Notes: generated by a model not told the origin, from the sequence alone. 64,000 nt of DNA from a virus (IMGVR_UViG_3300029305_003259:32001-96000); one strand, 5' to 3'. Positions 5,029-24,507 are shown, counted from the stretch's first letter. Numbers and translations: made by a program.

Positions 5029-5796
5029 ATGGCTGCTATTAATGTAAATAACCTAGTTTTTGACAAGGTTCTTCGTGTCGTTGCTTTTAGCAAGTCTGAC
5101 GACGCTTATCTATACAGCATGACCCAGGTTCAGGATGCTGCTATCAATGGCGCTGCTGAGGCTACTGAGGTTCTAGACAACGTCGGTGCTCGTATCATGA
5201 CCCTATATCGTGCTAAGACTGCTGAGTTCTCTGGCGCTAACGCTCTATTTGATCTAGGCCTACTTAGCGCTCAGGTTGGCTCTAAGAAGGTTGTAGGCGC
5301 TGCTACTGTTCCCGCTTTTGAGACCCTAGAGGTTGGTGGCGAGATGAAGCTAGCTCATACTCCTGCTGGCGAGATCACTGAGATCTTTGCTCTAAATGGT
5401 GATAGCTCTCTAGGCACCAAGTATGTTGCTGGTACTGCTGCTTCTGAGACTGAATTCGTAATTACTGGTGATGCTATTACTGCTCCTACTGGTCTAGAGG
5501 CTGGCACCAAGCTATTCGTTATGTATGATTACGAGGCCACTGATGCTGTTACTGTTGTCAATGAGTCCAATGCTTTCCCCAAGGCTGTTAAGCTAGTAAT
5601 CGAGGCTCTATGCTATGATCCTTGTGACCAGGATAACAAGATTCTCTGCTACATCACTGCTAAGAATGCCATCATGTCTTCTGACTTCGATGTAACTCTA
5701 GCTGCTGGCGAGACTCATCCTTTCACCTATCAGCTACAGCAGGATTACTGCGACAGCGAGAAGAGACTATACGAGGTAGTTGTCGTAGAGGACTAA
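5029..5796 (+). CDS. Major tail (tube) protein
   Basis: 255-aa acidic, beta-rich protein; SD AGGAGG; extreme codon bias typical of abundant proteins; followed by a terminator. Confidence 0.75.
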   Translation: MAAINVNNLVFDKVLRVVAFSKSDDAYLYSMTQVQDAAINGAAEATEVLDNVGARIMTLYRAKTAEFSGANALFDLGLLSAQVGSKKVVGAATVPAFETLEVGGEMKLAHTPAGEITEIFALNGDSSLGTKYVAGTAASETEFVITGDAITAPTGLEAGTKLFVMYDYEATDAVTVVNESNAFPKAVKLVIEALCYDPCDQDNKILCYITAKNAIMSSDFDVTLAAGETHPFTYQLQQDYCDSEKRLYEVVVVED

Positions 5797-5811
5797 TCTC
5801 TACTATTATCT

Positions 5812-5839
5812 GGGCAGGTGCAATAGTGCCTGCCCTTTT
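5812..5839 (+). terminator. Intrinsic terminator after major tail gene
   Basis: GGGCAGGTGC-AATA-GTGCCTGCCC hairpin followed by TTTT. Confidence 0.75.
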
Positions 5840-5858
5840 AAATAATTAGAAAAGGAGG

Positions 5859-6284
5859 GTGATTATGGCAAAGTCTAAACGTGCGTGCTACTTATGTGGC
5901 TCCAAATATGAGTACTGTGACTGCAATCGCCAACCTGCCTATATGGCTACATTCTGCTCAGAAAATTGCAGAGATATCTTTAGATCTTTATCTTCTTACG
6001 GCGCTGGTCTTATTTCGGCTGAAGATTGTAAAGAATTACTAGATTGCTGTGATTTGAGCAGTAAAGATTCCTATAAAGAGTCAATTCGCAACACCATTAA
6101 TAATTTCTATGCTACTCCTGTAGTAACAATCGAGGAACCCGAAGTAGTAGTTGCGGAACCCATTGTTGAGGAACAAATTGAAGAGACTGTAATAGAACCA
6201 GTTGTGATCGAGGAAATTGTTCCTGAGTATTTTGAGCGTAAAAGCAAGAAACGCAATCATGAAGTAGTTTTAGAAGATATCTAA
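5859..6284 (+). CDS. Hypothetical protein with N-terminal Cys cluster (putative Zn finger) and acidic low-complexity tail
   Basis: CYLC..CDC..CSENC; E/V/P-rich C-terminus; SD AAGGAGG. Confidence 0.7.
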   Translation: MIMAKSKRACYLCGSKYEYCDCNRQPAYMATFCSENCRDIFRSLSSYGAGLISAEDCKELLDCCDLSSKDSYKESIRNTINNFYATPVVTIEEPEVVVAEPIVEEQIEETVIEPVVIEEIVPEYFERKSKKRNHEVVLEDI

Positions 6285-6318
6285 TAAGGTACTACTTTAT
6301 GTGGTGCCTTATTTTTTT
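6283..6318 (+). terminator. Intrinsic terminator
   Basis: AATAAGGTACTAC...GTGGTGCCTTATT stem (with G-U pairs) plus T-run. Confidence 0.65.
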
Positions 6319-6339
6319 AGGCCAAAAGGAGAAGATACT

Positions 6340-6558
6340 ATGACTAAAAGTGGATTAATTCCGGGTGTTGAATATAGTCCAACAAATGTTGCTTATATTA
6401 CTAATTTGCGCCAAGCATATTTATATTTGCGCAATGGTGCCAAATTGGTCGATATTCTATATTTTGATACCAAAAATGATTCCTTAGTATTTTTGTTTGA
6501 AAAGTCTCAACACCTCAAACTATTATATGAACTTTGGAATAAACATGAATTAGTATAA
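6340..6558 (+). CDS. Small phage hypothetical protein
   Basis: ATG at 6340 after SD AAGGAG (the ORF-track start 6301 lies inside the terminator). Confidence 0.65.
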   Translation: MTKSGLIPGVEYSPTNVAYITNLRQAYLYLRNGAKLVDILYFDTKNDSLVFLFEKSQHLKLLYELWNKHELV

Positions 6559-6583
6559 AACTCCAACAGAAAGGAGTGAGAAA

Positions 6584-7444
6584 ATGTATACTATTTTAAT
6601 CAATGAAAACAATGAACTTATTACTACTGTGCGTGAGCGCATTATGCAGCGTAGCAAACTTGTAGATAATCTACACTTTCTAATGGCTCCAACCTACAAA
6701 GGTCTTGATATGACTAAGTTTACTGCCGTTATGGAATTTGTCACTCCTGCCAGTAGAGAATTAAAGACTGAAATTTTGAACAGATCAGAGTCATTGTATA
6801 AAGATATGATTGAATATAAAATGGCAATCGATACTGTCATTACCAAAGAAGCTGGCCCTGTTGAAATTACATTGACTTTTACATATGCTGAAATGGATGC
6901 AGACGGAAATGTAATTCAACATGTTCGCAAGACTGGCGTAACTACTTTGAATATTATTGCCGTCCCAACTTGGTGCAATGTTATTCCTGACAGTGCCCTT
7001 AATGCATTTGATCAACGACTTATTGCAATGGATGCTCGTATCAATGCTCTTGATGAATTGAGCGCTGAGCTTGATGCTGTTAAGGCAGATGACATTACTT
7101 ATAATAAGGATGATAATTCTCTACAATTAATGTCTAATGATAAGTTGATTGGTCAAAAGGTTTATTTAAATAGCTATGGATCTGGAATTACCAAAATTCG
7201 TATTGATGACGATGGTAATCTTATCGTGGTTTATAGCAGCGGAGAAGAGGAAGTTATTGGCAAGGTTTCTGGAGATTGTGGTGGCATTTACGTGCCTACA
7301 ATTACCCCTGATGGAATCTTGACTTTTACACTCCAAGATTCTCCCGGCGAAGAAACTATTAGCTATGATATCAATCCTGATAACGAGTGGTCTGATGACC
7401 CAGCTAAACCTGCTGGTTCAGATTATGTCTGGGACACTTTGTGA
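6584..7444 (+). CDS. Baseplate-upper (BppU-like)/tail fibre anchor protein
   Basis: N-terminal beta domain, short coiled coil, then I.DDGNLIV.YS.G / ITPDGILT repeats typical of fibre proteins. Confidence 0.5.
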   Translation: MYTILINENNELITTVRERIMQRSKLVDNLHFLMAPTYKGLDMTKFTAVMEFVTPASRELKTEILNRSESLYKDMIEYKMAIDTVITKEAGPVEITLTFTYAEMDADGNVIQHVRKTGVTTLNIIAVPTWCNVIPDSALNAFDQRLIAMDARINALDELSAELDAVKADDITYNKDDNSLQLMSNDKLIGQKVYLNSYGSGITKIRIDDDGNLIVVYSSGEEEVIGKVSGDCGGIYVPTITPDGILTFTLQDSPGEETISYDINPDNEWSDDPAKPAGSDYVWDTL

Positions 7445-7496
7445 TAAGAACATGAAGATCATGTTTTTATAAATATTTTAATGAAAGGAGATAAAA

Positions 7497-9077
7497 ATGG
7501 CTAATCAGAATGTAAGATTTTATTCTGTCGATTTGAAATCCAAATTCGACGCATTACAACCAAAAGACGCATATGCACTGTATTGGATCGAAGAAACTAA
7601 AGAGCTATTTAAAGGAGCAACACTCTTTGGTACTGGTGCAGAAGCAAGCGAAAAGGCCGCAGGTCTATTATCCGCAACTGATTATGCAGAACTTAAAAAG
7701 CTTATTGCCTCTGGCCCTGCTAAAACTCTGACACCTGTTGATGGAACTATTTCTATCGAAAACGATAAGATTGGTGTCAAGGTTTCTAAGACCGAAGGCA
7801 ACCTAATCGCAGTTAATGATGATGGTCTATTCGCAGCCGTCAAATCTGTATCCATAGATCAGGTCACTGGCCTTAAAGATGAACTTGATTCCATCAAGAA
7901 TGCTGCTGTTGGCGGAATTCACTACAAAGGCAATGTTCCAACCGTGGATGATCTACCTGACGATGCCGATCAGGGCGATATGTATGAAGTCGTTGCTGAT
8001 GGCTCCGAGTGGGCCTTCAATGGCGAGAAGTGGTTTGAGTATGGCACCGCACATTTTGTTCCAGTATCTGGCGCTGGAATTGATATTAGTGGCAGCACCA
8101 TTTCTGCAAAAATAAGTGCCGCTGCAGATAACTCTCTTGTTGTTGCGGAAGACGGTGGACTATTTGTACCAGAGTGTGATTTCACAGATAAAGACCGTGT
8201 TACCATTGATACCCTACCAATGCTTTATGTGACTAATGACAAAATGAACAATGCGATTGCCCGTGCTATTGCAGACAATTGTATGGTATGGGAAGAGCTT
8301 GGAGCTACTGTTGGAGTTGCAAAAATCGGAAATACATATTATCCAACAATTAATGCGGCTATTGCTGCAGCAAACGCCGGTGATACAATTAAGGTTGTAG
8401 CTGGTACTTATAGCGGTATTGAGTTTACAGATAGCACAAAAGCTAATATCACTCTGCTTGGCGAAGATGGTGTTTATGTTGGCAAGGTTCGTTTAGTAGA
8501 TACTGCCAACTATGGTGCGCCTGATGGCTTGACATTAAAGAACATCACATTCAATGGTGAGGGCATCACCGCACATGATGATACAATTAACAACATGTCT
8601 ATTGTCGGTTGTGACTTTGTTGACGGCGCAGTTATTCATATTGGAGACTGCGTAACCGATGGCCTTATCATTGAAAATTGCGAATTTGAGGCAACTAATA
8701 GTGCTGTAAATAGTCCTGAGAAGACCGCTATCCTGGTTCAGGGCACTTCTAAGAATGTTATTATTCGTGGAAATAATATCAAGGATTCTGAACACAATGC
8801 AATCCAGGTTGTTGGAGTAAGCGGATCTATGCTCGTTGATAGCAATACTATTTCTAATACTGGTAGCCGCGCAATGCGTATTACTACCAAAGATGGCGCA
8901 GTTCTAGCTATTATGAACAATACTATTACTAACGTTAATATCAATCCTTCCGAAGCAGAAGAAAACGATGGCCAAATCATAAAGATTACAGGTTCTGTTG
9001 TCGATGGCGCTATCGCTAATAACACCTATGATAATAACGAAATCGTCTTTAATGACGGTATTGGAAAAATTATTTAA
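7497..9077 (+). CDS. Tail fibre/spike with C-terminal right-handed parallel beta-helix (pectate-lyase-like; possible depolymerase)
   Basis: YPTINAAIAAANAGDTIKV.AGTY cap motif followed by N/I/V-rich beta-helix rungs. Confidence 0.75.
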   Translation: MANQNVRFYSVDLKSKFDALQPKDAYALYWIEETKELFKGATLFGTGAEASEKAAGLLSATDYAELKKLIASGPAKTLTPVDGTISIENDKIGVKVSKTEGNLIAVNDDGLFAAVKSVSIDQVTGLKDELDSIKNAAVGGIHYKGNVPTVDDLPDDADQGDMYEVVADGSEWAFNGEKWFEYGTAHFVPVSGAGIDISGSTISAKISAAADNSLVVAEDGGLFVPECDFTDKDRVTIDTLPMLYVTNDKMNNAIARAIADNCMVWEELGATVGVAKIGNTYYPTINAAIAAANAGDTIKVVAGTYSGIEFTDSTKANITLLGEDGVYVGKVRLVDTANYGAPDGLTLKNITFNGEGITAHDDTINNMSIVGCDFVDGAVIHIGDCVTDGLIIENCEFEATNSAVNSPEKTAILVQGTSKNVIIRGNNIKDSEHNAIQVVGVSGSMLVDSNTISNTGSRAMRITTKDGAVLAIMNNTITNVNINPSEAEENDGQIIKITGSVVDGAIANNTYDNNEIVFNDGIGKII

Positions 9078-11402: not shown

Positions 11403-12278
11403 ATGGCACTTTTTAAAGTAAATCGTGGAAATAGCTCAAACCTACCTGCTACTATGACAGACGGCTGGGCATATTTTTGCACTGATACCGCAGAGTTTTT
11501 TATTGACTATGCTGATGAAAATGGCGATTTGCATCGTAAGAAAATTAATGCTAAAGATGCCGAAACCATTGGCGGAGTAAGTCTTGATGAGGCTATGGAG
11601 CCTTTAGATCCATATCTGGAATATTGGTGGATAGTCCCAGAAGGATATCAGGTGTATGCTCAACAAGTAGAAGAGAATTATAGTTACACCTACGGTTCTT
11701 CGTCCGCGTGGTTCTCAGATAGTTTCAATCCATCTACTGGTGATTATAATGTTACCGTTTATTATGGCGATTCGTTCACATTTAATCCGGTGACAGGTAA
11801 GTATACCATTGAAAACCCTGTGGAATATACAGATAAGTATACCACTTTTGTTAGCGAAGCACCATCTTTGATGCTTAACAAATTTGTGGCGGCGAACAGT
11901 CCAGAGGCGAATATTATTATGTACTTCGTTTCTGGTACTACTATCGAGGATTATGTATATCAAAATATGTATAATGATATGAGGGTTCGATTCCAACCAC
12001 AGAATGTTACACGCTATTATCGTACACAAGTTGATACTAATTTCGTATCCGCTGAGACACAAAATGCTTATTCTGAAGATGATGGCTTCATCGCTCTAGG
12101 CACCATTAAGGACAAAGTTCTAGACCTAGCGCTAGAAGCAGAATCAACACCAAAATATGATGTGGTAACAGCCTTAAATAATAGCGAAACTGAAATTCCA
12201 ACTTCAAGCGCTGTATATAAGGCGATAGAAACTCAGACAGGTATGGCAAACGTATTTGCCACAGCGACAATTTTATAA
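11403..12278 (+). CDS. Tail fibre-associated protein
   Basis: N-terminus (RG..SNLPAT..DG.AYFCTD) resembles the N-terminus of ORF 9102; IPTSSAVY.AI motif near the C-terminus. Confidence 0.6.
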   Translation: MALFKVNRGNSSNLPATMTDGWAYFCTDTAEFFIDYADENGDLHRKKINAKDAETIGGVSLDEAMEPLDPYLEYWWIVPEGYQVYAQQVEENYSYTYGSSSAWFSDSFNPSTGDYNVTVYYGDSFTFNPVTGKYTIENPVEYTDKYTTFVSEAPSLMLNKFVAANSPEANIIMYFVSGTTIEDYVYQNMYNDMRVRFQPQNVTRYYRTQVDTNFVSAETQNAYSEDDGFIALGTIKDKVLDLALEAESTPKYDVVTALNNSETEIPTSSAVYKAIETQTGMANVFATATIL

Positions 12279-12290
12279 AGGAGTGATAAT

Positions 12291-13532
12291 ATGGCAATTT
12301 TAAATATAACCTTACCGGAAGGCGCAGTTGTATGTAATGGTAAACAAGTAACATTCCGTGCCCCATGTGATTGCGTCGGAGTAACCGGTATTGCCATTGA
12401 AGGCGTAACATATGCCCTTTTGGATACAACTGATGCACCAGTTAATTCTATTAGTGCATTCGTAACAGGCGCATTGGTTACCGTAGTTTTGGATACTGAA
12501 AACAATAAAGCTTACATTCAGAATGGTAGCGCCGCAGCTGCTGGTGTTCCTAGAAGAGTTGCCGTAAAGCTACTTGCTTCTGGATGGGATTCCGAAAATT
12601 CTCAGATTGTTGATGTTTTAGGTTTGTCCATTGATGAAACCGAGCAACTTGTTCATATATTCCCAGCGAATAATGTTGTATATGCCGAGTCTGGCATTGT
12701 TGCAGAAACTTATGAGGCTGGTAAGCTAAAATTCACAGCGGAAACAATTCCAACAGTCGATCTTGATATCTCCATTATTATTGAAGAATTAGGCACTCAA
12801 AATCCTGATGCTCCTAGTAATGTAGAATTCGTAGCAGTTGATCTGCCCATTTCTTCTACTGTTCCTACTAGCCATGATGTTTGGGTAGATCCAGAAGATG
12901 ATGGAACCGTAGAGGTTGCATCTAATGCTGTAATAAAGTATAAGGATCCTGTTACTGGAGATATTAAAAAAATTGGCGGCGGTGGATCAGGTATTCTTAT
13001 CAGCGAAGAAATCCCTGATAACGTTGAAGTCTGGATCGATCCTGATGAAGAGGATCAGACCGATAATTTCTACACCATGGCACAGAGTGATGCGAGATTT
13101 GCAGGCATTGATTTGTCCAACGTGTCCAATGAAGACATGTTGGCGAAGATGCAGGCATCCGGGTATAGTCTGCCTGGAAACATTGGTGAGTATTACTCCG
13201 CAACTGGAACAGTTGCTTCTGTTTACAAAGAATACACTGAGATTGCTTCTTTGACAGTGCCAGCTGGTACTTATTTGTTTATAGCTTACACAGAAATAAG
13301 CATTGATGCTGCGGATACTGTTATCAATGCGTCATTTAATTTTGGCAACACCTCGCCCAGCGGTTGGACTTGCGGCGCTGTTAGAACCACTGGTGCTGGA
13401 GGTGGCGGTGCTGTTAGTGTGGGTCTTGGAGTGAATGAAATCGACAATATAACCGCCACGCTCACAGGTTATGGAGGCAAAAATGCAACCTATAATTATA
13501 TTGGCAAAATTTTGGCTGTGCGTTTGGCATAA
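12291..13532 (+). CDS. Modular tail fibre/receptor-binding protein
   Basis: Several beta modules, W(V/I)DP linkers, C-terminal 'LTVPAGTYL...AVRLA' fibre-tip-like domain. Confidence 0.6.
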   Translation: MAILNITLPEGAVVCNGKQVTFRAPCDCVGVTGIAIEGVTYALLDTTDAPVNSISAFVTGALVTVVLDTENNKAYIQNGSAAAAGVPRRVAVKLLASGWDSENSQIVDVLGLSIDETEQLVHIFPANNVVYAESGIVAETYEAGKLKFTAETIPTVDLDISIIIEELGTQNPDAPSNVEFVAVDLPISSTVPTSHDVWVDPEDDGTVEVASNAVIKYKDPVTGDIKKIGGGGSGILISEEIPDNVEVWIDPDEEDQTDNFYTMAQSDARFAGIDLSNVSNEDMLAKMQASGYSLPGNIGEYYSATGTVASVYKEYTEIASLTVPAGTYLFIAYTEISIDAADTVINASFNFGNTSPSGWTCGAVRTTGAGGGGAVSVGLGVNEIDNITATLTGYGGKNATYNYIGKILAVRLA

Positions 13533-13538
13533 GAAGGG

Positions 13539-13931
13539 GTGAAAGAATTGTTTATTATTGAGATTACGTCTAATGAAAACGGTTTTCACCGGATGGAAAG
13601 CCAGAGTCATAAAACAGAGAATTGGAAGGACGGTTATGCCGTAGTTCCCGAAGAAATGGTTCCCGCCATTGATGCCACTTTTGGTTTCTGTGATATTGAA
13701 GTGGTGGACGGTGTTGTGGTTTCTTTTACCGCAATGGAACATCCTGCGCCCCCTCTTTCTATTGAAGGCCAGATCGCGGAATTGAAGGCACAGTTGGCGG
13801 CAACAGATTACATGGTTATCAAGTGTTCTGAGGCTCAGCTAGTAGGTGAAGAATTTCCCTACGACGTTGTTGCTTTGCACGCTGAGAGACAAGAAATAAG
13901 AAATAAAATTAATGCATTGGAGGTACAATAA
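13539..13931 (+). CDS. Tail fibre assembly/chaperone-like protein
   Basis: C-terminal ELKAQLAATDY..IK..E...RQ.IR.KIN.LE motif common downstream of fibre genes. Confidence 0.55.
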   Translation: MKELFIIEITSNENGFHRMESQSHKTENWKDGYAVVPEEMVPAIDATFGFCDIEVVDGVVVSFTAMEHPAPPLSIEGQIAELKAQLAATDYMVIKCSEAQLVGEEFPYDVVALHAERQEIRNKINALEVQ

Positions 13932-14248
13932 TGGCTGTATTAAAATATAAAGACCCAACTACTGGCGAAGTTTGCACAGTAGGAGCACCTAAGATAAAAG
14001 CTCCAACTTATGTATCTTCAACTATGTTAGCCACCTCTTGGGTAGACAACACTTATAGCTTCGAAGCTGACTACCCACATGTAGATTTTGATATTTCAAT
14101 TGAGGTAGCTCCTACTGCTACCGTAGAACAATTCGAGGCATTTGGAGAAGCAATGATTTGTGGCTCAGCCGATACTAATATTGCCACTGCGATTAATGGA
14201 GCACCTTCTATTGACATTCCAATTGTCATAAAGGTGGTGGGTAAATGA
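13931..14248 (+). CDS. Small tail-fibre adaptor-like protein
   Basis: LKYKDP.TG motif shared with ORF 12291; W...P.IDI.I beta module. Confidence 0.55.
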   Translation: MAVLKYKDPTTGEVCTVGAPKIKAPTYVSSTMLATSWVDNTYSFEADYPHVDFDISIEVAPTATVEQFEAFGEAMICGSADTNIATAINGAPSIDIPIVIKVVGK

Positions 14249-17200
14249 GCTTACAAGTATTAACTCAAGGTGGTGCTGGCGGAGCTTCTGCTAGTATCCA
14301 AGTTAATGGTCTAAGTGAAACTGATAGTGTTAAAGCTGTTCAGAAGATTAAGAATGTTATTGAGAATCCTGATTATAAGGAATATAGAGTATTAAAAGGT
14401 CAATTGGCTCTTGGAGATGTAGCAGTTGGCGAGACTGTCAGACTGAATGTCAGTGGAGTAGCAACGGAATTCATAGTAGTTAATCAAGGTAAACCTTCTG
14501 ATCTATATGATGATAGTTGTGATGGTACATGGTTGTTGATGAAGGGTATTGAACAAGGTAGTACCTGGAACAACTCTAACTATAGTGGCAATAGCTATGG
14601 TTCATCTGCAGTCCACAGATACCTTAATAGCACCTTTTTAGGTACGTTGGATGCTGGCATACAGTCTGTTGTCATCCAAGCAAAGATTCCATACGTCAAT
14701 GGGACAGGTTCTGGTGGCTCTGTAGCATCTGGTTCTAATGGTTTGTCTGCAAAAGTTTTCTTACTTTCTGGTTACGAGGTGGGTTTCACTACAAGTGATG
14801 ACTCTCGTTTTCCAATTGATGGTTCAAAGTTGAGTTACTTCTTGTCAGGCTCAGGCACTTCCGCTAATAATAAGCGTATAGCTTATCTGAACGGAAATGA
14901 CGATTATAGTTGGTGGTTACGTTCTCCATATACCGCAGGAACAGAAATGGTTTTCTTGGTAAACGATCAAGGTATGAAAGGTCAATCACTACCAAGTCCA
15001 AAAAGAAATCGTCCAGCAATGATTCTCCCGACCAATCTTTCCGTCAAAGACGGATTCATTGACGGTACTGAGGTACAACAAGGAAAATTACTTAGCTCTG
15101 CATCCGTTGGAGACATTGTTAAGATGAATGTTGGCGGTACTCCTACGGAATTTATTGTGGTGCAACAAGGTAACCCTGATTCGTCTTTGTATGATGAAAG
15201 CTGCGATGGAGCTTGGCTGTTGATGAAAGATATTCACAATACTGCTATGTACACCACAATTGGTAACGCATCTTATAATTTTGCAATGATACAAAATTCG
15301 TTGAGTATATTCTTAGGAAAATTAGATGAGAATGTATTGAATGCAGTAAAGACAGTAAAAATACCATATTTAGAGATAGAGGGAGCCAAGAATGATATTA
15401 AGAGAACCCTATTCTCTGGAACGGAAGGTCTATCAACTAAAGCGTTCCTATTATCTGTCTATGAGGTAGATCCTAGTAGGACAGGTTCTCCTAAAGATGG
15501 TACATGCTTAGACTATTTTAAGTCTGCTAGCACGAGTGATCGTATCGCTTCTTTCGAAGGTACAACGACTGCCTGGTGGACTCGTACAGGATGGGGGACT
15601 TACGCTGATACTCAATCATATCTAGTTGGCGATAATGGCAGCACATCGACAACAAGCGTTAAGACATATTGCGGTGTTCGTCCCGCTATAATTCTTCCTG
15701 GTGATACAATAATAACCGACGATTTCATTGGTGGTTCAATATCAGAGCCTAGCAGTGTAGAAACTTATACTCCTCTAGAGTATATCGAGAGTACCGGTAC
15801 ACAGTATATTGATACAGGATATCTCCCTCAGCAGCATGACGAAGTCTCAGCAAAATTCGAAATGACCGAGATATTAGAATATAACAGATTAATTGGAGCT
15901 GCTACTGGTAGTAGCGGTGCAGCCTACTACGGATGCAATCCAATTACTCAATTAAATGGGTACTTCGATATAGGTTATTATAACTGGTATAGACCTAACT
16001 CCATTCCATGTGAAAAAGATACTATTTACGATTATTACGCATCTCTTAGCGATGGAAGTCAGGAATATACTATCAATGATGCAAATATGAGTGGAGACTT
16101 GACTGGGTTCGTAGAGATACCTTGTTCTTACTTTGTGTTCTCGGTGAACCATGATGGTAGTCCTGAATGGGGTAGCTCTGAATCTAGTTGTTGTCCTGCA
16201 AAATTGTATGGTTTGTCAATCAGCAATAATTCGGTATTGATTCGAAACTTTGTCCCAGCTAAGCGTAATTCAGATGGAGTTCTAGGCCTATTTGATACTG
16301 TAAATTCTGTCTTTTATACCAACGCAGGTACTGGTGACTTTGTTGCTGGCCCCGAGGTTTCTCAGTATATTGAGGCGGTTGTCGATGGTAGAACTGTGAA
16401 TGGTAGATGGGTCGATATGATTAATCCTGAGTATGTTGAGCTACCTGTTACTGAGAATGAGGCAATTGATGGATATACCAGACTTGAGTACATCGAAAGC
16501 AGTGGCACGCAGTACATTGATACCGGGTTCACCCCTTCCAGCGCAAGAAGTTTTAAGTTCTCTTTTGATGCGGCGTTCTTGAGTGAGACTAATGCTATTT
16601 ACGGAACGGGTCGCTCTTATGCGGGATTCTATAGTAGCCCCTCAATAGCACAATTTGCTCTATATCAGACTATAGTACAAATATCATCCGTATCATATGA
16701 TACTAATAAACATCACTTTGTTCTCGATGGTGTAAATTTAACTGCTACAATTGATGATAATTCTGCGTCTATACCTTATTCGTCTGGTTCACCTTCAGAT
16801 TATACATGGGTACTTTTTGGATACTCTCACGCAAGTTTTAATGCAAGTAGGCTGTGGGGCGCACAGATTGAAGAAAACGGAGTGCTGGTACGCAACTTTA
16901 TCCCCGCAAGGCGGGATTCCGATTCCGTGGTTGGCCTGTATGACCTTGTGAACGGCGTGTTCTACACCAATGCCGGAAGCGGCGAATTTGTAGCAGGAGA
17001 AGAATTGTCTCAATTTACTAAGGAATATATTCAGTTAGAGTACATTGAGAGTACTGGCACACAGTATATTGATACTGGTTATAAGCCCAACACAAATACA
17101 AAGCTTGAAATTGGAGCATCTACTACCGATACTACAAACGATAAGCCTCTATTTGGTGTACGTAAATCAAATGGCGTAGATGGATTCTTGTGTTGGTTTA

Positions 17201-18357
17201 ACCCACAGGTTGCAGAACAACCCGGTTTTGCAGTAGGTTCTATGTCTAATACTTATACTAGTTATGGTATAGCTACTGGAGTTCGTTATGATGTAACGCT
17301 ATCCAATTCATTATTTACAATGAATGAATTGTCTTATCCTTTTGATGCACAGACTTTCACTTCTAGTTATAATCTTTATCTACTTGCACTTAATAAAGCA
17401 GATGTTCTAGATAATAGATTGTTCTATGGTAGATTGTATTATACTCGTATTTATGAATCTGATGTTTTAGTTCGTGATTATGTTCCAGTTAAGAGGGTAT
17501 CTGATGGCGCAATTGGTCTATACGATAAAGTCAATCAAACATTCTACTCTAACGCAGGCACCGGGAACTTCACAGCTGGTGCAGAGGTTCCTGAATCATT
17601 TAGTTATTTCTTGATTTCCCCAATTAAAGCTTATGGTACTTGGGAAGTAGGGACTACCAGCAGTGTAAGTATTAACAATCAGAATGTTGATATCGATGAG
17701 GCTACCATCTTTAATCTAGACTTTGTAAAACTAGTTAGATTCACTACTGACTTTACAGCAAAAGGTGATGATTGGATTGAGGAGGGTGGCACATTCACTT
17801 TCAATCCGGCAACCGCAGCCTATCCCGGATTGTATCAAGCGGAAGGCAGTACACAATTCGGCACACTTACAACCTATGATAGTACGGAATGGAAAGCAAA
17901 ACGGTTAATAATTCCGTTAGGCGGTTCTCTTGAAACTTTCCACGCAGAAACGGAATGTTTCTGGGTATCATCCGATGCAAACAGAATGGGTCGCTTGATG
18001 CTATGTTTCCAAGACGAGGATGGAAACTTTTTGTTCCACATCATTATTAATGATGGTTGGGGTCGTTCCAATAGCATAAGCATCGCCTATTTCAACGCAT
18101 TGAACTCTAATCTGTTGAAATTCGTAGATGCCGTATCTGTCAGCCCGTATAACAATGTTCCGTTGCGCTTTACGCTGGATTATGACGGCAACAAGATGAA
18201 CATTGGATTTTCTTATAACGGCGGGGGATTTTCCTATAAATCGGAAACCTATGCTTTCCCTGCGATTGCAAATGCGGTGGTATATTTCGCCTACTATCCG
18301 ACATCTAACCCGACCCCGCTGATGAATATTCGTTCACTAACAGTAGAACAAGCATAA
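14245..18357 (+). CDS. Large multidomain receptor-binding/adhesin protein (two DUF6273-like domains, three LEYIESTGTQYIDTG lectin-like repeats, C-terminal beta-sandwich)
   Basis: Two VG..V..NV.G..TEFIVV.QG.P...YD.SCDG.WLLMK...FLLS..E...WW.R...RPA.IL units; three LEYIES.GTQYIDTG...LVR.(F/Y).P..R.SD...GL.D.VN..FY.NAG.G.F units. Confidence 0.75.
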   Translation: MSLQVLTQGGAGGASASIQVNGLSETDSVKAVQKIKNVIENPDYKEYRVLKGQLALGDVAVGETVRLNVSGVATEFIVVNQGKPSDLYDDSCDGTWLLMKGIEQGSTWNNSNYSGNSYGSSAVHRYLNSTFLGTLDAGIQSVVIQAKIPYVNGTGSGGSVASGSNGLSAKVFLLSGYEVGFTTSDDSRFPIDGSKLSYFLSGSGTSANNKRIAYLNGNDDYSWWLRSPYTAGTEMVFLVNDQGMKGQSLPSPKRNRPAMILPTNLSVKDGFIDGTEVQQGKLLSSASVGDIVKMNVGGTPTEFIVVQQGNPDSSLYDESCDGAWLLMKDIHNTAMYTTIGNASYNFAMIQNSLSIFLGKLDENVLNAVKTVKIPYLEIEGAKNDIKRTLFSGTEGLSTKAFLLSVYEVDPSRTGSPKDGTCLDYFKSASTSDRIASFEGTTTAWWTRTGWGTYADTQSYLVGDNGSTSTTSVKTYCGVRPAIILPGDTIITDDFIGGSISEPSSVETYTPLEYIESTGTQYIDTGYLPQQHDEVSAKFEMTEILEYNRLIGAATGSSGAAYYGCNPITQLNGYFDIGYYNWYRPNSIPCEKDTIYDYYASLSDGSQEYTINDANMSGDLTGFVEIPCSYFVFSVNHDGSPEWGSSESSCCPAKLYGLSISNNSVLIRNFVPAKRNSDGVLGLFDTVNSVFYTNAGTGDFVAGPEVSQYIEAVVDGRTVNGRWVDMINPEYVELPVTENEAIDGYTRLEYIESSGTQYIDTGFTPSSARSFKFSFDAAFLSETNAIYGTGRSYAGFYSSPSIAQFALYQTIVQISSVSYDTNKHHFVLDGVNLTATIDDNSASIPYSSGSPSDYTWVLFGYSHASFNASRLWGAQIEENGVLVRNFIPARRDSDSVVGLYDLVNGVFYTNAGSGEFVAGEELSQFTKEYIQLEYIESTGTQYIDTGYKPNTNTKLEIGASTTDTTNDKPLFGVRKSNGVDGFLCWFNPQVAEQPGFAVGSMSNTYTSYGIATGVRYDVTLSNSLFTMNELSYPFDAQTFTSSYNLYLLALNKADVLDNRLFYGRLYYTRIYESDVLVRDYVPVKRVSDGAIGLYDKVNQTFYSNAGTGNFTAGAEVPESFSYFLISPIKAYGTWEVGTTSSVSINNQNVDIDEATIFNLDFVKLVRFTTDFTAKGDDWIEEGGTFTFNPATAAYPGLYQAEGSTQFGTLTTYDSTEWKAKRLIIPLGGSLETFHAETECFWVSSDANRMGRLMLCFQDEDGNFLFHIIINDGWGRSNSISIAYFNALNSNLLKFVDAVSVSPYNNVPLRFTLDYDGNKMNIGFSYNGGGFSYKSETYAFPAIANAVVYFAYYPTSNPTPLMNIRSLTVEQA

Positions 18358-19354: not shown

Positions 19355-19484
19355 GCTAACATATTAATGCTACATGTAGTGTAGAATTGCCTGTACAAAA
19401 GTATATAACATTAAAGTCAAATTTATTTATTATATAAATAGATTATCTCAAGTAGCTTAACATTAACGCCACTATAACAATCAA

Positions 19485-19511
19485 AGGAGCGGCTTAGTCC
19501 GCTCCTATTTT
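19485..19511 (+). terminator. Probable intrinsic terminator ahead of the radical-SAM cassette
   Basis: AGGAGCGG-CTTAGT-CCGCTCCT followed by ATTTT. Confidence 0.6.
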
Positions 19512-19537
19512 AAAATTTTAATAAGGAGGTAAGTAAC

Positions 19538-19822
19538 ATGATTATAAATCCTTCCTATGGCAATGGCAACGGAGACTCTTATGAAAAAGAAGAAGTTTTA
19601 TCAAATGATACAAAGGCACTGTTTGGACTAAGCGAAGAAGCTACGCCAGACGATGTTTTTAAAGCGATAGCCTCTGAAGAAAATTTTTCATGTGGATTTA
19701 TTGCTCAGGAAAGTGAACCGAGTAATACCAACTTGTTATGGATCGATACTACTGCCGAAACAGGTGGCTTAAAATATTACAATGGAAGTGCCTGGGTTCA
19801 TGTCCCTGTTGCTTATACTTAA
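19538..19822 (+). CDS. Small tail-fibre-like protein
   Basis: SD AAGGAGGT; P...LLWIDT....LKYYNGSAW motif typical of fibre linker modules. Confidence 0.6.
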   Translation: MIINPSYGNGNGDSYEKEEVLSNDTKALFGLSEEATPDDVFKAIASEENFSCGFIAQESEPSNTNLLWIDTTAETGGLKYYNGSAWVHVPVAYT

Positions 19823-19847
19823 TTTTTTGGGAAAAAGGTGAAAATAA

Positions 19848-21482
19848 ATGGATAAAAGGATTAAAATAACCGAAGGATTACGAGATTATGTTGAAAGACT
19901 AAATTTCGAGGCAATCAGATATAGAGATTTACTTCACTCTGTTAGAAGAGATTCTTCTCCTATGACAGATGATGAATGGCAAAGTTCGCTCGATTATTAT
20001 AGGGAACTGAATGCTGAGGCGCAGTATTGCCTTAAAGTTGCCATGGATGAAATTTATGATATGTATAAAGATGAAATAAAAGATTCCCCTTGGCATATTA
20101 ATTTCTCTGATTGTGATCTCGTAATTGGGAGCACCTCGAGTGAGCCAATAATGATTAAAGAAGAAACTTATAACGACAAATTAAGAAGACTTTATCCGCC
20201 TGAAAAAAATGTGCCGCTTGCTATTAATGGTACATATACCAAGGACATCACATTGCAGGTTACAGACGCATGTAATATGGCTTGTACATACTGCTACCAA
20301 CATAATAAGGGAACGCACTCTATGACTTTTGATGTTGCAAAGAAGTTTATCGATATGATTTTGGATGCCGATGAACGAACAAACACATATATCACTTCTA
20401 CGAAGTGCGATGGTGCAATTATTAATTTCATAGGCGGTGAACCTTGGCTGGAAATTGATTTAATCTCCAAGGTCAGTGATTATTTTATTGGCGAAGTATT
20501 TAGACGCAAGCATCCTTGGGCTATAAAGTTTGTATTTAGTGTATGCTCAAATGGCCTCCTACATTTTGATTCAAAAGTTCAAGAGTATATGAAAAAGCAT
20601 ATTGATCATTTTGGATATAACATTTCTATCGATGGCAACAAGGCTTTACATGATTCGTGCAGAATTGATTTGACTGGCAATGGCACATATGATAGAGCCA
20701 TTGCTGGTGTTAAGGACTTTAAAGAAAATTTTGGCGGAAATATGGGCAGCAAAATGACCATTGCACCTGGTAATATTGATAAAGTATTTGATGCGGTATC
20801 TTTTATGATAGGAGATAGCGGATATAGAAATATTAATCTAAACTGTGTTTATGAGGAAGGTTGGACACTAGAGCATGCCAATACTCTTTATTGGCAATTG
20901 CATAAATTGACTGACTGGTTATATGATAATAATCTTTTACATACGACCAGATTATCCATGTTCACAGAAATGTGTGGCAAGCCTATTCCAGAAGACAATG
21001 ACAGTAATTGGTGTGGAGGAGTAGGCCTCATGTTAGCTGTTGATTATAAGGGAGATATTTTCCCATGTCTTCGTTATATGGAATCTTCTGTTGATAATAA
21101 AGTTCCTGCTTATGTTATAGGGAATATTCATTCAGGTATTAATATTGAGAAAGAACATTGTGATCGTGTAAATTGCCTCGGATGTATCACAAGAAAGTCT
21201 CAGTCAACAGATGAATGTATTAATTGTCCGATTGCAATGGGTTGTGGTTGGTGTAGTGCATATAATTACGAAGTATTTGGCACGCCAAATAAAAGAGCGA
21301 CCTATATTTGTTGCATGCATAAAGCAAGAGTTCTTGCGAATGTTTATTATTGGAGACTTAGAGGCATAGATTATCCTATGAATTGCCCAAAAGAATGGGC
21401 AATTGAAATAATAGGAGAAGAAGAATATGAAAAATTGAATTCTATGAAAGTGGGTGAAAGAAATGGGGTTAGTATCTGCTGA
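19848..21482 (+). CDS. Radical SAM/SPASM peptide maturase (CXXX-repeat target family, TIGR04115-like) with fused N-terminal accessory domain
   Basis: CNMACTYC (CxxxCxxC), FIGGEP, SNG, ISIDG, NWCG...G.IFPC, CINC.IA.GC.WC...C.MHKARV.AN.YYW. Confidence 0.9.
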
Positions 21483-22062
21483 TAGATTTAATGAACTTAA
21501 AGCTAGAGTTAAGGCTGAATGTGCTAGAAGAGCTTATGCAGATAGCGTTGCTTCTTATGGTGGCACAGATTATGACTATACTACTACACCTGCGTCTGGC
21601 ACATTAATTAAGCAAGAACATAGAGACAAAATAGCTATTCCCCTTAATGCCATAAGTGAGGATATGATTCCAATTGCTTCAGGACTTCCTGTTGTATTAG
21701 ATGAGGATTTATTATCAATGGAAGCCTTTATTACGGTGTTAGAACAAAGAAGTCCAACAGATAGCGAAGGAACAGACTGTTCAGGCGGATGTGCAGGAAT
21801 GTGTTATGGATGCCAGGGGACTTGTTATAATAATTGTTCTGGTTGTGGTAATAGTTGTAGTAATAATTGCTCTGGTGGTTGTAAAGGCGGCTGCACTAGT
21901 GATTGCGGTGGTTGCGGAGGAAGTTGCGATGCCTCTTGTGAAGGAGGATGTTTATATAGTTGTTATGACATTTGTTCCGGTTGTGGAGGCGCTTGCTCCA
22001 ACGATTGTAAGGGAAGCTGCGCTGGATGCGGCGCTACGTGTGCCTCTAGCTCAACACAATAA
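21463..22062 (+). CDS. Cys-rich CXXX-repeat protein, putative radical-SAM substrate
   Basis: Overlaps the rSAM stop codon; ATG 21463 after GGGTG SD (ORF track 21454); C-terminal ~90 aa hold 24 Cys spaced CxxxC (18 times) or CxxC (5 times). Confidence 0.85.
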
Positions 22063-22084
22063 TATGTAGATATTGGAGGCATAT

Positions 22085-22636
22085 ATGAACGAGTTATATC
22101 ATGCAAAATATTTTTTATGTTTAGCAGATGCAAAGGTAAATGAATCCGTAAGGCTTAACTTTTCTTCATGTATTGATTATTCGAATTTGGTTGCATGTAA
22201 TAATATTTTTTCATTAATAATATCGACTGTTGTTGATGGTATTAAAATCGGTATTTACACTGAAAATTCAGCCAAACTAGCCATAGAGGAAGAATTTTCA
22301 AAATTAGGTTTAGAAATAATATGCGGCAATTATTCGCAATTTAAACATTTTATTAATTTAGTCGTAAATTCGTGTGCTATATCTAATTTTAATGTTCAAG
22401 ATTTTATCGGAATGTATAAATCATTTATTGAAATTGCTGACAATATGGACATGTGTTATAAGATTGACATTTATTATGCAATTTTAAATTCTATTGTTAA
22501 TTTTTCTCATATACTTGTTGATATTGAATTAACTGAAAAACTAGTAAATTATATTGAATCATTGGATGATGTTAAAATTGGCTCTTTTTCAAAAATAGTA
22601 TTATCATCATTAGATTATATAAGAAAAAATAGTTAA
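22085..22636 (+). CDS. AT-rich hypothetical protein, possibly part of the rSAM cassette
   Basis: ATG 22085 after GGAGG; 22 nt after the Cys-rich gene; no recognised motif. Confidence 0.65.
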   Translation: MNELYHAKYFLCLADAKVNESVRLNFSSCIDYSNLVACNNIFSLIISTVVDGIKIGIYTENSAKLAIEEEFSKLGLEIICGNYSQFKHFINLVVNSCAISNFNVQDFIGMYKSFIEIADNMDMCYKIDIYYAILNSIVNFSHILVDIELTEKLVNYIESLDDVKIGSFSKIVLSSLDYIRKNS

Positions 22637-22683: not shown

Positions 22684-23010
22684 GTGATAAAAATGAAAAA
22701 GAAGAAAATTAATAAAAAAAATGTAAATCCTTTTAATTTTATAAAAACTTTTTCAAAAGTCATAACTGCTGTATGGGTTGTAATATGGGTTGAAGTGATT
22801 ATCTTCTCACAGATTGCCACAATTTTTTCTCTAGGAGATGCTACTTCAATTCAGGTCATTAATGATAATGCCAAGGAAATTGGTCTAGTTATAACTGGCG
22901 CATATTTCGGTACTAAATGTTTTGAAAATTTGGCCAAAGGCTATGAAGAGCATCAATTGCGCATCCTTGGTATTGATAGAGCAGATTATGAGGAAATGGA
23001 AGAAGAATAA
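22684..23010 (+). CDS. Putative holin (two TM segments)
   Basis: Basic N-terminus, two hydrophobic stretches, YF.TK..EN motif; directly upstream of an endolysin. Confidence 0.6.
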   Translation: MIKMKKKKINKKNVNPFNFIKTFSKVITAVWVVIWVEVIIFSQIATIFSLGDATSIQVINDNAKEIGLVITGAYFGTKCFENLAKGYEEHQLRILGIDRADYEEMEEE

Positions 23011-23021
23011 GGAGGTTCAAT

Positions 23022-23771
23022 ATGAATGAGAAGCAATTAAGAGACAAGCTGGTAAAGAAGGCGGTTTCTTACTTGGGCACTAAGGCAGGCAGTGCTAGAC
23101 ATAAGAATATTGTTGATACTTATAATAAAATTGTCCCACTGCCAGCTGGCTATAAGGTAAAATATACAGATCCTTGGTGCGCCACATTCGTATCATTTTG
23201 TGCTTCTGTTTGTGATATGTTAGATATCATTCCAGCAGAATGTGGATGCTCCAGACAAATTGAGCTATGGCAAAAATTGGGCAGATGGCAAGAAAGGGAT
23301 TCCTATGTGCCTCAAACTGGCGACATTATATATTTCGACTGGGACGATTCTGGTAAGGGCGACAACACTGGTTGGTCTGACCATGTAGGAATTGTTGTAT
23401 CTGTATCTGGTGGAAAAATTAAGACTATTGAGGGAAACAAAAGTAATGCAGTAGGATATAGAACTATTGCGGTTGATGGCAAATATATTCGAGGATATGG
23501 TTTGCCAGACTTTGCCTCAAAGTCAACAGAAGACACTAAGATGGACACATGCAATGTTGAATTAAATGTTCTCGCAAAAGGATGTAAGGGCGACAGCGTA
23601 AAGGCCTTGCAGATTTTGCTCAAAGGCTATGGATATTCTATTGGTAGTAGCGGCGTAGATGGAAGTTTTGGGCCTTCTACTTTGTCTGCTGTAAAGAAAT
23701 ATCAAAAAGATAAGGGATTATCTGTTGATGGGTCTGTTGGCCCAGCCACATGGAAATCATTACTTGGATAA
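23022..23771 (+). CDS. Endolysin: CHAP domain + peptidoglycan-binding domain
   Basis: WCATFVS (catalytic Cys), DHVGIV (His), IEGN; C-terminal G.SVK.LQ.LL...VDG.FG..T..AV..YQ...GL.VDG.VG..TW. Confidence 0.9.
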   Translation: MNEKQLRDKLVKKAVSYLGTKAGSARHKNIVDTYNKIVPLPAGYKVKYTDPWCATFVSFCASVCDMLDIIPAECGCSRQIELWQKLGRWQERDSYVPQTGDIIYFDWDDSGKGDNTGWSDHVGIVVSVSGGKIKTIEGNKSNAVGYRTIAVDGKYIRGYGLPDFASKSTEDTKMDTCNVELNVLAKGCKGDSVKALQILLKGYGYSIGSSGVDGSFGPSTLSAVKKYQKDKGLSVDGSVGPATWKSLLG

Positions 23772-23814
23772 TATTGAATGGCGCTAAAATATTTTAAAGA
23801 AAGGGGTGTGGCCA

Positions 23815-24507
23815 ATGGTATATAAAGTTACGGAAGAAACGATTACTGGGATTGCTAATGCGATTCGTGCAAAAACAAATTCAACCGAAGAAATCAAAGT
23901 CCAAGATTTTGCGGAAGAAATTTTAAACATAGAAACTGGCGAAAATACTATTTCTGCGGCACAAAGCGCCAGAGACGCAGAAGCTAGTGCCATTAGTGCC
24001 GCGTCTAGCGCACAGGCTGCTAAAGAAAGTGCTGCCATGATTGTGACAGAGGTTGATATCGCTAAATCATGGGCTACTGGCGACGGCACATTAGAGGGTG
24101 ACGATGCTTATCAAAATAATGCCAAATATTATTCAGAAGTAGCTAAACAACATGCCGATGACGCAGATAGCTATCGTGCTGAAGTTACCGCAAATGCTGA
24201 CGCAGCTAGAATTGCCGCAGAAAATGCAGCTGCAAGTGAATCTGCTGCTGAGCAGTTAAGGGATGAGACCAATCAGAATCTGGATCATGCTATTGAGATG
24301 GTTCAGAATCTTGAAGGTTTTAATTCTGAGGCTTGGGCTGTTGGAACTAGAAATGGCATAGAAGTAACTGATGGCGATCCTACATACCAGAATAATTCAA
24401 AATATTGGGCTGATGTTACACGTGCGACAGCTACAGATTTTCAGGCCAATGTTGGAGCTTTTAATATTTTAGCCACAGCTACCGTAGTAGAAGAGGTGAC
24501 AACATGA
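23815..24507 (+). CDS. Tail fibre-like helical protein
   Basis: IANAIRAKT motif, Ala-rich helices, duplicated WA.G...D..YQNN.KY unit; ATG at 23815. Confidence 0.55.
   Translation: MVYKVTEETITGIANAIRAKTNSTEEIKVQDFAEEILNIETGENTISAAQSARDAEASAISAASSAQAAKESAAMIVTEVDIAKSWATGDGTLEGDDAYQNNAKYYSEVAKQHADDADSYRAEVTANADAARIAAENAAASESAAEQLRDETNQNLDHAIEMVQNLEGFNSEAWAVGTRNGIEVTDGDPTYQNNSKYWADVTRATATDFQANVGAFNILATATVVEEVTT

Follow-up and report, generated by a model that had tools for sequence, protein, structure and literature searches.

A phage cysteine-ladder protein encoded with a CXXX-repeat radical-SAM maturase: a candidate cross-linked component of the tail fibre

In a stretch of 64,000 nucleotides of a viral genome (IMGVR_UViG_3300029305_003259, positions 32001-96000; the whole of this stretch is called the window), a protein of 199 amino acids, here the target, is encoded in a small cassette together with an enzyme of the radical S-adenosylmethionine (SAM)/SPASM type (Table 1). 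The target possesses a single cysteine at residue 20 and then, by script count, 24 cysteines within residues 106-193 (106, 110, 114, 117, 121, 125, 128, 132, 136, 140, 144, 148, 151, 155, 159, 163, 167, 171, 174, 178, 182, 186, 189 and 193). The 23 steps of this ladder (4,4,3,4,4,3,4,4,4,4,4,3,4,4,4,4,4,3,4,4,4,3,4) are 18 CXXX and five CXX steps, the latter reading CYGC, CSGC, CGGC, CSGC and CAGC. A first-pass annotation, made by a model from the sequence, had described the same 24 cysteines with three or two intervening residues and had noted that all five CxxC steps are CxGC; translation bears out both statements, and the absence of a signal peptide, also noted there, agrees with an N-terminus that on direct reading is hydrophilic and without a signal-peptide-like stretch. 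The 88 residues of the ladder comprise 24 C, 23 G, 12 S, 6 N, 5 A, 4 D, 4 Y and 3 T, that is 27% Cys and 26% Gly. A Shine-Dalgarno-like GGTGA stands upstream of the ATG at 21463, and this start agrees with the N-termini of 17 homologues. A genome-wide check found the target to be the sole cysteine ladder in the 128,431-bp virus genome. As Tandem Repeats Finder detected in the DNA only two marginal two-copy arrays, the periodicity is maintained at the protein level and does not stem from recent slippage.

The start of the target gene overlaps by 20 nucleotides the stop of the gene for the enzyme, which scores 399.7 bits on the NCBIfam hidden Markov model (HMM) TIGR04115 (cut-off 350) with coverage of profile positions 1-359 of 359. 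TIGR04115 is the 'radical SAM peptide maturase, CXXX-repeat target family', part of a system which was reportedly defined bioinformatically by Haft and Basu in 2011 and the catalogued parts of which are the target repeat TIGR04114/PF27846, the maturase TIGR04115, the associated protein TIGR04116 and a second, SPASM-only maturase, TIGR04119. The radical-SAM and SPASM cysteines of the window enzyme (the latter C389...C407 and C457/460/466/469) are all intact. The next-best characterised families, PapB (172.7 bits), QhpD (110.3), CcpM (103.5) and the SCIFF maturase (89.9), all remain far under their own cut-offs; in the case of the PapB-family model NF047865 the cut-off is 340, which places the enzyme near this family but outside it. 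Among solved structures, CteB (5wgg) is the closest. While TIGR04116 is not detected in the cassette by hmmscan, it is seen by profile comparison: a joint profile of the N-terminal extension of the maturase and of stand-alone phage proteins of about 90 amino acids, which occupy the place of the helper in related cassettes, matches a genuine TIGR04116 protein with a probability of 90.7% (E 1.3e-6, 80 columns), so that in this cassette enzyme and helper, separate proteins in the catalogued system, form one polypeptide. No neighbour of the target matches TIGR04119 in HMM scans, and the 187-amino-acid neighbour reaches a TIGR04119 protein in BLASTP at E 0.19 only. For the target itself a Pfam scan gave no match; its orthologues pass TIGR04114 (P0009 with 25.0 bits, P0015 with 30.3 bits), and PF27846 (tSAM_targ_Cxxx_rpt) is precomputed on eight of the 17 homologues, so that membership of the window protein among the CXXX targets follows from orthology through its N-terminal region (residues 1-105, the N-domain) and from gene context. 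The proposal of the first-pass annotation that the protein is an enzyme substrate thus stands at the level of family and context, with a maturase above its cut-off, overlapping genes and orthologues within the target families. By family assignment, the cassette is a phage form of the CXXX-repeat system.

Since the nearest characterised relatives of the enzyme all make cysteine thioethers, cross-linking of the ladder is favoured over metal binding. A metallothionein-like metal- or iron-sulfur-binding polymer, in which most cysteines would stay free and the enzyme would make few changes or none, draws on the high cysteine content with Gly/Ser spacers and no Pro or His, and on the absence of a fixed thioether acceptor residue at any X position; moreover, many cysteine-rich archaeal proteins are predicted to bind metal cofactors (PMC13692751). 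We consider such a polymer quite improbable, as translation of the target is coupled to that of a maturase from a family which such targets define, and no metallothionein or ferredoxin family match was obtained in the HMM and Pfam scans. CX3C/CX2C in long uniform runs is not known as a cluster-binding spacing.

With respect to distribution, a word-based search with the N-domain retrieved 17 homologues of 45-67% identity, all of which combine the N-domain with a ladder, and an exhaustive profile search over 1.84 billion representatives of clusters at 50% identity gave 478 clusters at E<=1e-3, of which 247 also reach E<=1e-10. Of the best 148 clusters, 109 have six or more cysteines in a ladder run (median 22, maximum 36 cysteines), and most of those best clusters that have no such run are contig-end fragments. 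Among 32 distinct ladders, which span 13-56 cysteines, 635 steps are CXXX, 171 CXX and 16 of another type; two further loci carry 62 cysteines. As judged from sequence, the N-domain defines a large, mostly viral family with ladders of 13-62 cysteines, and the variation in repeat number among homologues which the first-pass annotation had suggested looking for does exist. At the X positions of the 32 ladders, Ser/Thr make up 46% at X1, Gly 49% at X2 and Gly/Ser/Thr 68% at X3, with Pro at 0.1%, D at 4% and E at 1.7%, and Gly is allowed at each of the X positions.

Among nine close relatives with proteins of 240 amino acids, the ratio of non-synonymous to synonymous differences per site (pN/pS) amounts to 0.04 for the N-domain and 0.07 for the ladder, and one close pair shows 32 synonymous and no non-synonymous changes across the ladder. 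This strong purifying selection argues that the target protein is clearly made and constrained over short times, X positions included; on longer time scales, drift is seen both at the X positions and in the number of repeats. Together with the same cysteine register in hundreds of homologues, differences of up to 32 synonymous versus no non-synonymous argue that the ladder is not a product of chance. Relatives occur in metagenome-assembled genomes of Oscillospiraceae, Christensenella, Clostridium sp. and Eubacteriales, and hosts of the Clostridia type fit the Gram-positive-type endolysin and the oxygen-sensitive enzyme. A mostly viral cluster is labelled in the ESM Atlas as 'Modification target Cys-rich repeat domain-containing protein'. 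The relatives are all from uncultivated phages, and a tblastn search of the target against 50,697 deposited phage records (INPHARED) gave no match; the human-faecal record MT835573, found through an enzyme search, holds a distant cassette. A profile-derived pattern search with the ladder start gave no result for want of a conserved stretch. As a separate observation, two related phages (L022/L027; records G002 and G003; loci L049-L053) use TAG as a sense codon, as four to six in-frame TAG and no other stops are present in their genes of the TIGR04115 type, and the 157-kb record G003 encodes three radical-SAM paralogues (416, 335 and 110 bits).

A link to tail fibres is provided by the open reading frame (ORF) directly before the cassette, which at nearly every related locus ends in a module of about 40 residues with the consensus P.N..LLWIDT...TGGLKYYNGS.WVHVPVAY(T/S) at the extreme C-terminus. 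The carriers of the module range from 54 to 843 amino acids and several of them match tail-fibre or virion-protein PHROGs; in most relatives the module ends a tail-fibre protein, while in the window it ends a separate ORF of 94 amino acids. The 45-residue module alone as a query retrieved 79 IMG/VR loci, ten of which are cut off by the end of the contig. In 65 of the 69 usable loci, the module is directly followed by the enzyme and a ladder protein with N-domain, although these loci share ancestry and do not represent 65 independent events. Of the other four, two possess a different cysteine-repeat protein with 12-residue units and then two radical-SAM genes, and two possess neither. The triad is kept in all 15 enzyme lineages (clustered at 70% identity), in the order fibre-enzyme-target in nine, fibre-target-enzyme in five and in a divergent arrangement in one. 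That the linkage survives rearrangement and deep divergence speaks for a functional tie.

Several loci with the module deserve mention in their own right. The 159.8-kb JGI contig L003 contains two complete cassettes (5246-7534 and 12202-14534) in two gene orders, each preceded by its own LWIDT-ending protein, and on the 244-kb contig L073 (4110-5126) the LWIDT module ends a collagen-like fibre protein with GPTG repeats, the target there having a more divergent N-domain and 43 cysteines. In a G+C-rich phage (L094, 4304-8453; L095, 3889-8404) two small proteins ending in an LWIDT...VPVAW module are followed by a protein of about 360 amino acids with repeats of 12 residues ('NGTCS.GSKS.G') and by two radical-SAM genes that match weakly, which looks like a sister system with a different cysteine repeat.

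Tail-fibre assembly genes of many phages directly follow the fibre gene. The target could thus be a fibre assembly factor which, with the 187-amino-acid protein encoded after it, helps to fold or trimerise the fibre C-terminus and is absent from the particle, as the position directly after the fibre gene and the linkage to the fibre C-terminal module would allow. A chaperone, however, needs neither a ladder of 13-62 cysteines nor a dedicated radical-SAM enzyme, and the searches made revealed no similarity to known tail-fibre assembly families, which leaves this role with little probability. Related cassettes encode after the target a protein of 172-202 amino acids (10-18% identity in a five-way alignment), and library scans assigned no family to the 187-amino-acid protein, producing weak TPR-like look-alikes only.

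The N-domain was modelled by AlphaFold2 (AF2) from 111 sequences with a predicted local distance difference test score (pLDDT) of 73.7 and a predicted template modelling score (pTM) of 0.66, with helices at residues 6-22, 51-64 and 80-95; K13, V16, A18, E19, R22, R23, Y32 and P60 are invariant in 14 diverse homologues. The predicted three-helix core and the strong purifying selection lend moderate support to the folded N-terminal domain of the first-pass annotation, which had also suggested a comparison with phage structural proteins. No structural relative was found: Foldseek on the PDB gave nothing at E<=0.001, BFVD returned family members only, and VIA-align gave generic helical bundles with a best Z of 6.0. 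In homologues, the N-domain accepts extra domains, namely a 175-residue N-terminal extension, in a homologue which is a real gene inside a cassette, and insertions of 100-170 residues between helices, and in one homologue the target is fused C-terminally to the helper domain. None of the inserts, which are beta-rich, matches Pfam or PHROG. A structural scaffold could readily accommodate insertions of this kind, but in a leader that is to be discarded they would be hard to understand. These architectural variants are represented by P0150, P0026 (L056, 775-1902), P0076, P0138, P0073 and P0187 (L147, 10673-12115).

A word search for fusions of the N-domain to long proteins found none, and the profile search yielded insertions and extensions only, with no fusion to recognisable fibre shafts; in one protein of 224 amino acids, encoded on a contig of 1.7 kb, residues 1-72 of the N-domain are followed by a repeat of the tail-fibre type. 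The idea that the ladder is the far end of tail-fibre proteins was not upheld, as the ladder proteins of 481 and at least 524 amino acids that a pattern scan had found beside radical-SAM genes lack an N-terminal PHROG hit and their fibre identity is unsupported. In the library representatives P0038 and P0097, N-domain residues 1-~80 continue into what by eye resembles a SAM-synthetase C-terminus and an aldo-keto reductase; these are probably assembly or gene-call chimeras, although a phage SAM synthetase beside a radical-SAM cassette would make sense.

Whether the N-domain is an anchor, as the first-pass annotation preferred, or a leader bears on the nature of the product. A product outside the particle akin to a ribosomally synthesised and post-translationally modified peptide (RiPP) would have the N-domain as a long leader read by the helper, and a modified ladder, cleaved or uncleaved, freed at lysis to act outside the virion, for instance as a signal or as an antagonist of competing bacteria or phages. 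The TIGR04116-like helper fused to the enzyme, a conserved N-terminal region before a variable core, export of the cellular CXXX targets, the position of the window cassette just before holin and endolysin genes, and the homologue whose target is fused to a helper domain would all suit such a product. We regard it as unlikely, although less so than metal binding or an assembly role: the leader would be a predicted folded domain of 105 residues which tolerates whole-domain insertions, purifying selection among close relatives acts on the whole ladder sequence, beyond the cysteines, and the near-obligate linkage to the fibre C-terminal module would be left unexplained. Furthermore, no peptidase, exporter or immunity gene was seen in the phage cassettes examined; in particular, no peptidase or transporter is present among the window cassette genes and their immediate neighbours, nor in the precomputed Pfam lists of two related loci. 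The preference for an anchor finds circumstantial support only, in the missing protease and exporter, the accepted insertions and the linkage to the fibre module, while the helper domain fused to the enzyme, which resembles a RiPP recognition element (RRE), fits leader-type recognition; the N-domain may serve as both.

The reading which we prefer, with a probability of roughly one half, is that the target is the dedicated substrate of the co-encoded enzyme, is cross-linked in its ladder and forms a fibre-associated component of the virion and not a free peptide. The four genes at 19538-22636 would be expressed late in infection alongside the fibre genes, and the enzyme, holding the 199-residue protein by its fused TIGR04116-like helper domain, would form carbon-sulfur (thioether) cross-links from some or many of the 24 cysteines of the ladder, a chemistry suggested by the relatives of the enzyme. 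Thereby the disordered Gly/Ser/Thr-rich tail would turn into a compact, protease-resistant and redox-independent knot or rod. The helical N-domain would dock this product onto the 'LLWIDT...VPVAYT' module, which is the fibre end in most relatives and part of the 94-amino-acid protein here, and the ladder would come to lie at or near the fibre tip, by analogy with gp38, which caps the T-even long tail fibre. That a substrate of radical-SAM thioether formation can be of protein size has a precedent in CrpA/CrpC (PMC13692751).

A number of observations weigh against this reading. The family members are known here from sequence and prediction. The window target scores 8.1 bits on TIGR04114 and is thus below the cut-off of 20. 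In the full-length AF2 model the ladder has a pLDDT below 40, that is, it is modelled as disordered, so that no ladder structure can be proposed, and as the N-domain has no recognisable structural relative, its designation as an attachment domain is pure inference. The RRE-type helper and the strongly conserved N-terminal helix constitute a classic leader-recognition arrangement, and the cellular homologues are short peptides exported by the twin-arginine translocation (TAT) system and hence secreted products. The Asp/Glu acceptors known for PapB and QhpD are rare in the ladders, which, as any X can be Gly, means that the chemistry may differ and the acceptor atoms cannot be guessed. Finally, the common ancestry of the module loci reduces the weight of their number.

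More tentatively, phages of strict anaerobes may possess a fibre-tip appendage made rigid through radical-SAM carbon-sulfur cross-links, an enzyme-made and redox-proof substitute for disulfides which would be the first radical-SAM modification of a virus particle. In the boldest form of this idea, the enzyme would also join the ladder by a covalent bond to the 'WIDT...VPVAYT' module, at the invariant Asp or at the free C-terminus; if true, this would explain the constant position of the module at the extreme C-terminus.

In the genomic neighbourhood, large receptor-binding-type proteins and then the ORF of 94 amino acids precede the maturase (Table 1). One upstream protein, of 1370 amino acids (14245-18357), is unusual in combining a match to a Hoc-like head-decoration PHROG (residues 55-271) with one to a Dit (distal tail) PHROG (residues 1181-1368). 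The gap of 183 nucleotides before the ORF of 94 amino acids (19355-19537) contains a hairpin and T-rich run, then a strong AGGAGG ribosome-binding site. The scan flagged the hairpin on the minus strand only and its plus-strand reading as a possible transcription boundary is our own; within the fibre module, the four genes of the cassette may be transcribed as a separate unit.

Table 1. Positions in the window of the cassette genes, their parts and neighbouring features
Feature	Position	Strand	Basis
G+C-rich hairpin, then T-rich run; possible transcription boundary	19485..19506	flagged on minus only	
94-amino-acid protein; last ~40 residues are the 'LLWIDT...GGLKYYNGSAWVHVPVAYT' module	19538..19822	+	
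Radical-SAM/SPASM maturase, CXXX-repeat-target family, 544 amino acids	19848..21482	+	TIGR04115 HMM
TIGR04116-like helper domain fused to maturase, residues 1-~95	19848-~20130	+	profile comparison
Maturase CxxxCxxC motif, C142/146/149	20271-20294	+	
Target ORF, 199 amino acids and stop	21463-22062	+	translation
N-domain of target, residues 1-105, predicted helical bundle	21463..21777	+	alignment and AF2
Cysteine ladder, residues 106-193, presumed site of maturase modification	21778..22041	+	
C-terminal tail ASSSTQ (six residues) and stop codon	22042..22062	+	
187-amino-acid helical protein, no family; candidate chaperone or adaptor	22073..22636	+	
108-amino-acid membrane (holin-like) ORF, then CHAP and PG_binding_1 endolysin	22684..23771	+	
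Another tail-fibre-like gene after the endolysin	23806-24507		

Peptide maturases of the radical-SAM/SPASM type are known for the production of small, secreted natural products. In the present case, such enzymology is apparently aimed at a protein of the virus particle, in several hundred sequence clusters mainly from gut phages of Clostridia. If true, this would constitute a new kind of covalent reinforcement in phage structure, by which phages of anaerobes stabilise exposed appendages without disulfides, and a first function for the orphan CXXX-repeat system. With one enzyme, one substrate of 199 amino acids and one putative docking partner of 94 amino acids, the system is compact enough to suit studies of thioether installation at the protein scale, and a conserved framework with variable X positions would be of interest as a receptor-binding scaffold.

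In comparison with known systems, the cassette resembles the CXXX-repeat system in having a cysteine at every fourth residue, an adjoining TIGR04115 maturase and a TIGR04116-like helper, which is fused here. Literature searches on the CXXX repeat, TIGR04115 and phage ranthipeptides gave no paper on the chemistry or on a phage role, and no experimental study of the cellular or the phage form was found. One full cellular locus was examined (MT837480.1, 2222-6270; L002), which encodes a target with TAT signal and ladder, then TIGR04115, TIGR04119 and TIGR04116 proteins, followed by TatA- and TatC-like genes; although deposited as 'Bacteriophage sp.', this record is evidently a fragment of a Bacteroidota chromosome. 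Twenty relatives of its target were found, and the 13 inspected are 95-153 amino acids long (most 95-118) with about 12-17 cysteines and a highly conserved TAT region; the source of one cellular relative gives it the name 'CXXX repeat radical SAM target protein'. While the cellular targets have a twin-arginine signal and about 12-17 cysteines, the phage form has no signal peptide, a helical domain of 105 residues and up to 62 cysteines, and while the cellular locus adjoins TatA/TatC and a TIGR04119 protein, the phage form is without TIGR04119 and is tied to the fibre module. The idea that the helper reads a ladder start 'C..SCTGLC' common to phage and cellular targets was rejected, as the Bacteroidota targets start otherwise and their conserved part is the TAT signal region.

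By HMM score and nearest structure, the closest characterised relatives are PapA/PapB (the ranthipeptide freyrasin), QhpC/QhpD and the SCIFF maturase CteB, in all of which a cysteine sulfur becomes bonded to carbon in another residue. These enzymes act on short peptides or on a small enzyme subunit, and the Asp, Glu and Thr acceptors, placed there in fixed motifs, are not conserved in the ladder. With respect to substrate size, CrpA/CrpC of Methanococcus voltae is more alike: a protein-sized cysteine-rich substrate receives ranthionine cross-links from a radical-SAM/SPASM enzyme of family TIGR04463, its N-terminal domain aids enzyme engagement and the links form inside short C-x-x-X motifs (PMC13692751). 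Both systems thus involve a protein and not a peptide, with an N-terminal domain and a repetitive C-terminal cysteine region, and CrpC possesses an RRE and SPASM. On the other hand, the window enzyme reaches only 72.4 bits on TIGR04463 (cut-off 525), and CrpA has 17-residue repeats and is cellular.

On the side of the fibre, gp38 of T2/S16-type phages is a small monomeric adhesin, encoded after the fibre gene, whose N-terminal domain attaches to the distal end of the fibre and whose C-terminal domain, repetitive and rich in glycine, is exposed at the tip and has a conserved framework with variable positions between (PMC12032242). For the target, a genetic linkage to a fibre C-terminal module is seen, and attachment to the fibre would complete the likeness. 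The analogy is a functional one only, as the two proteins share neither sequence nor a detectable fold, gp38 lacks a cysteine ladder and needs no modifying enzyme, and gp38 does not appear among the matches of the N-domain in Foldseek or VIA. Cumulatively, the repeat, the enzyme family and the helper are already catalogued (TIGRFAMs/NCBIfam, Pfam PF27846), while new results are the delimitation of the N-domain family with its size, the analysis of selection, the helper fusion as demonstrated by profile comparison, and the near-obligate link to the fibre C-terminal module.

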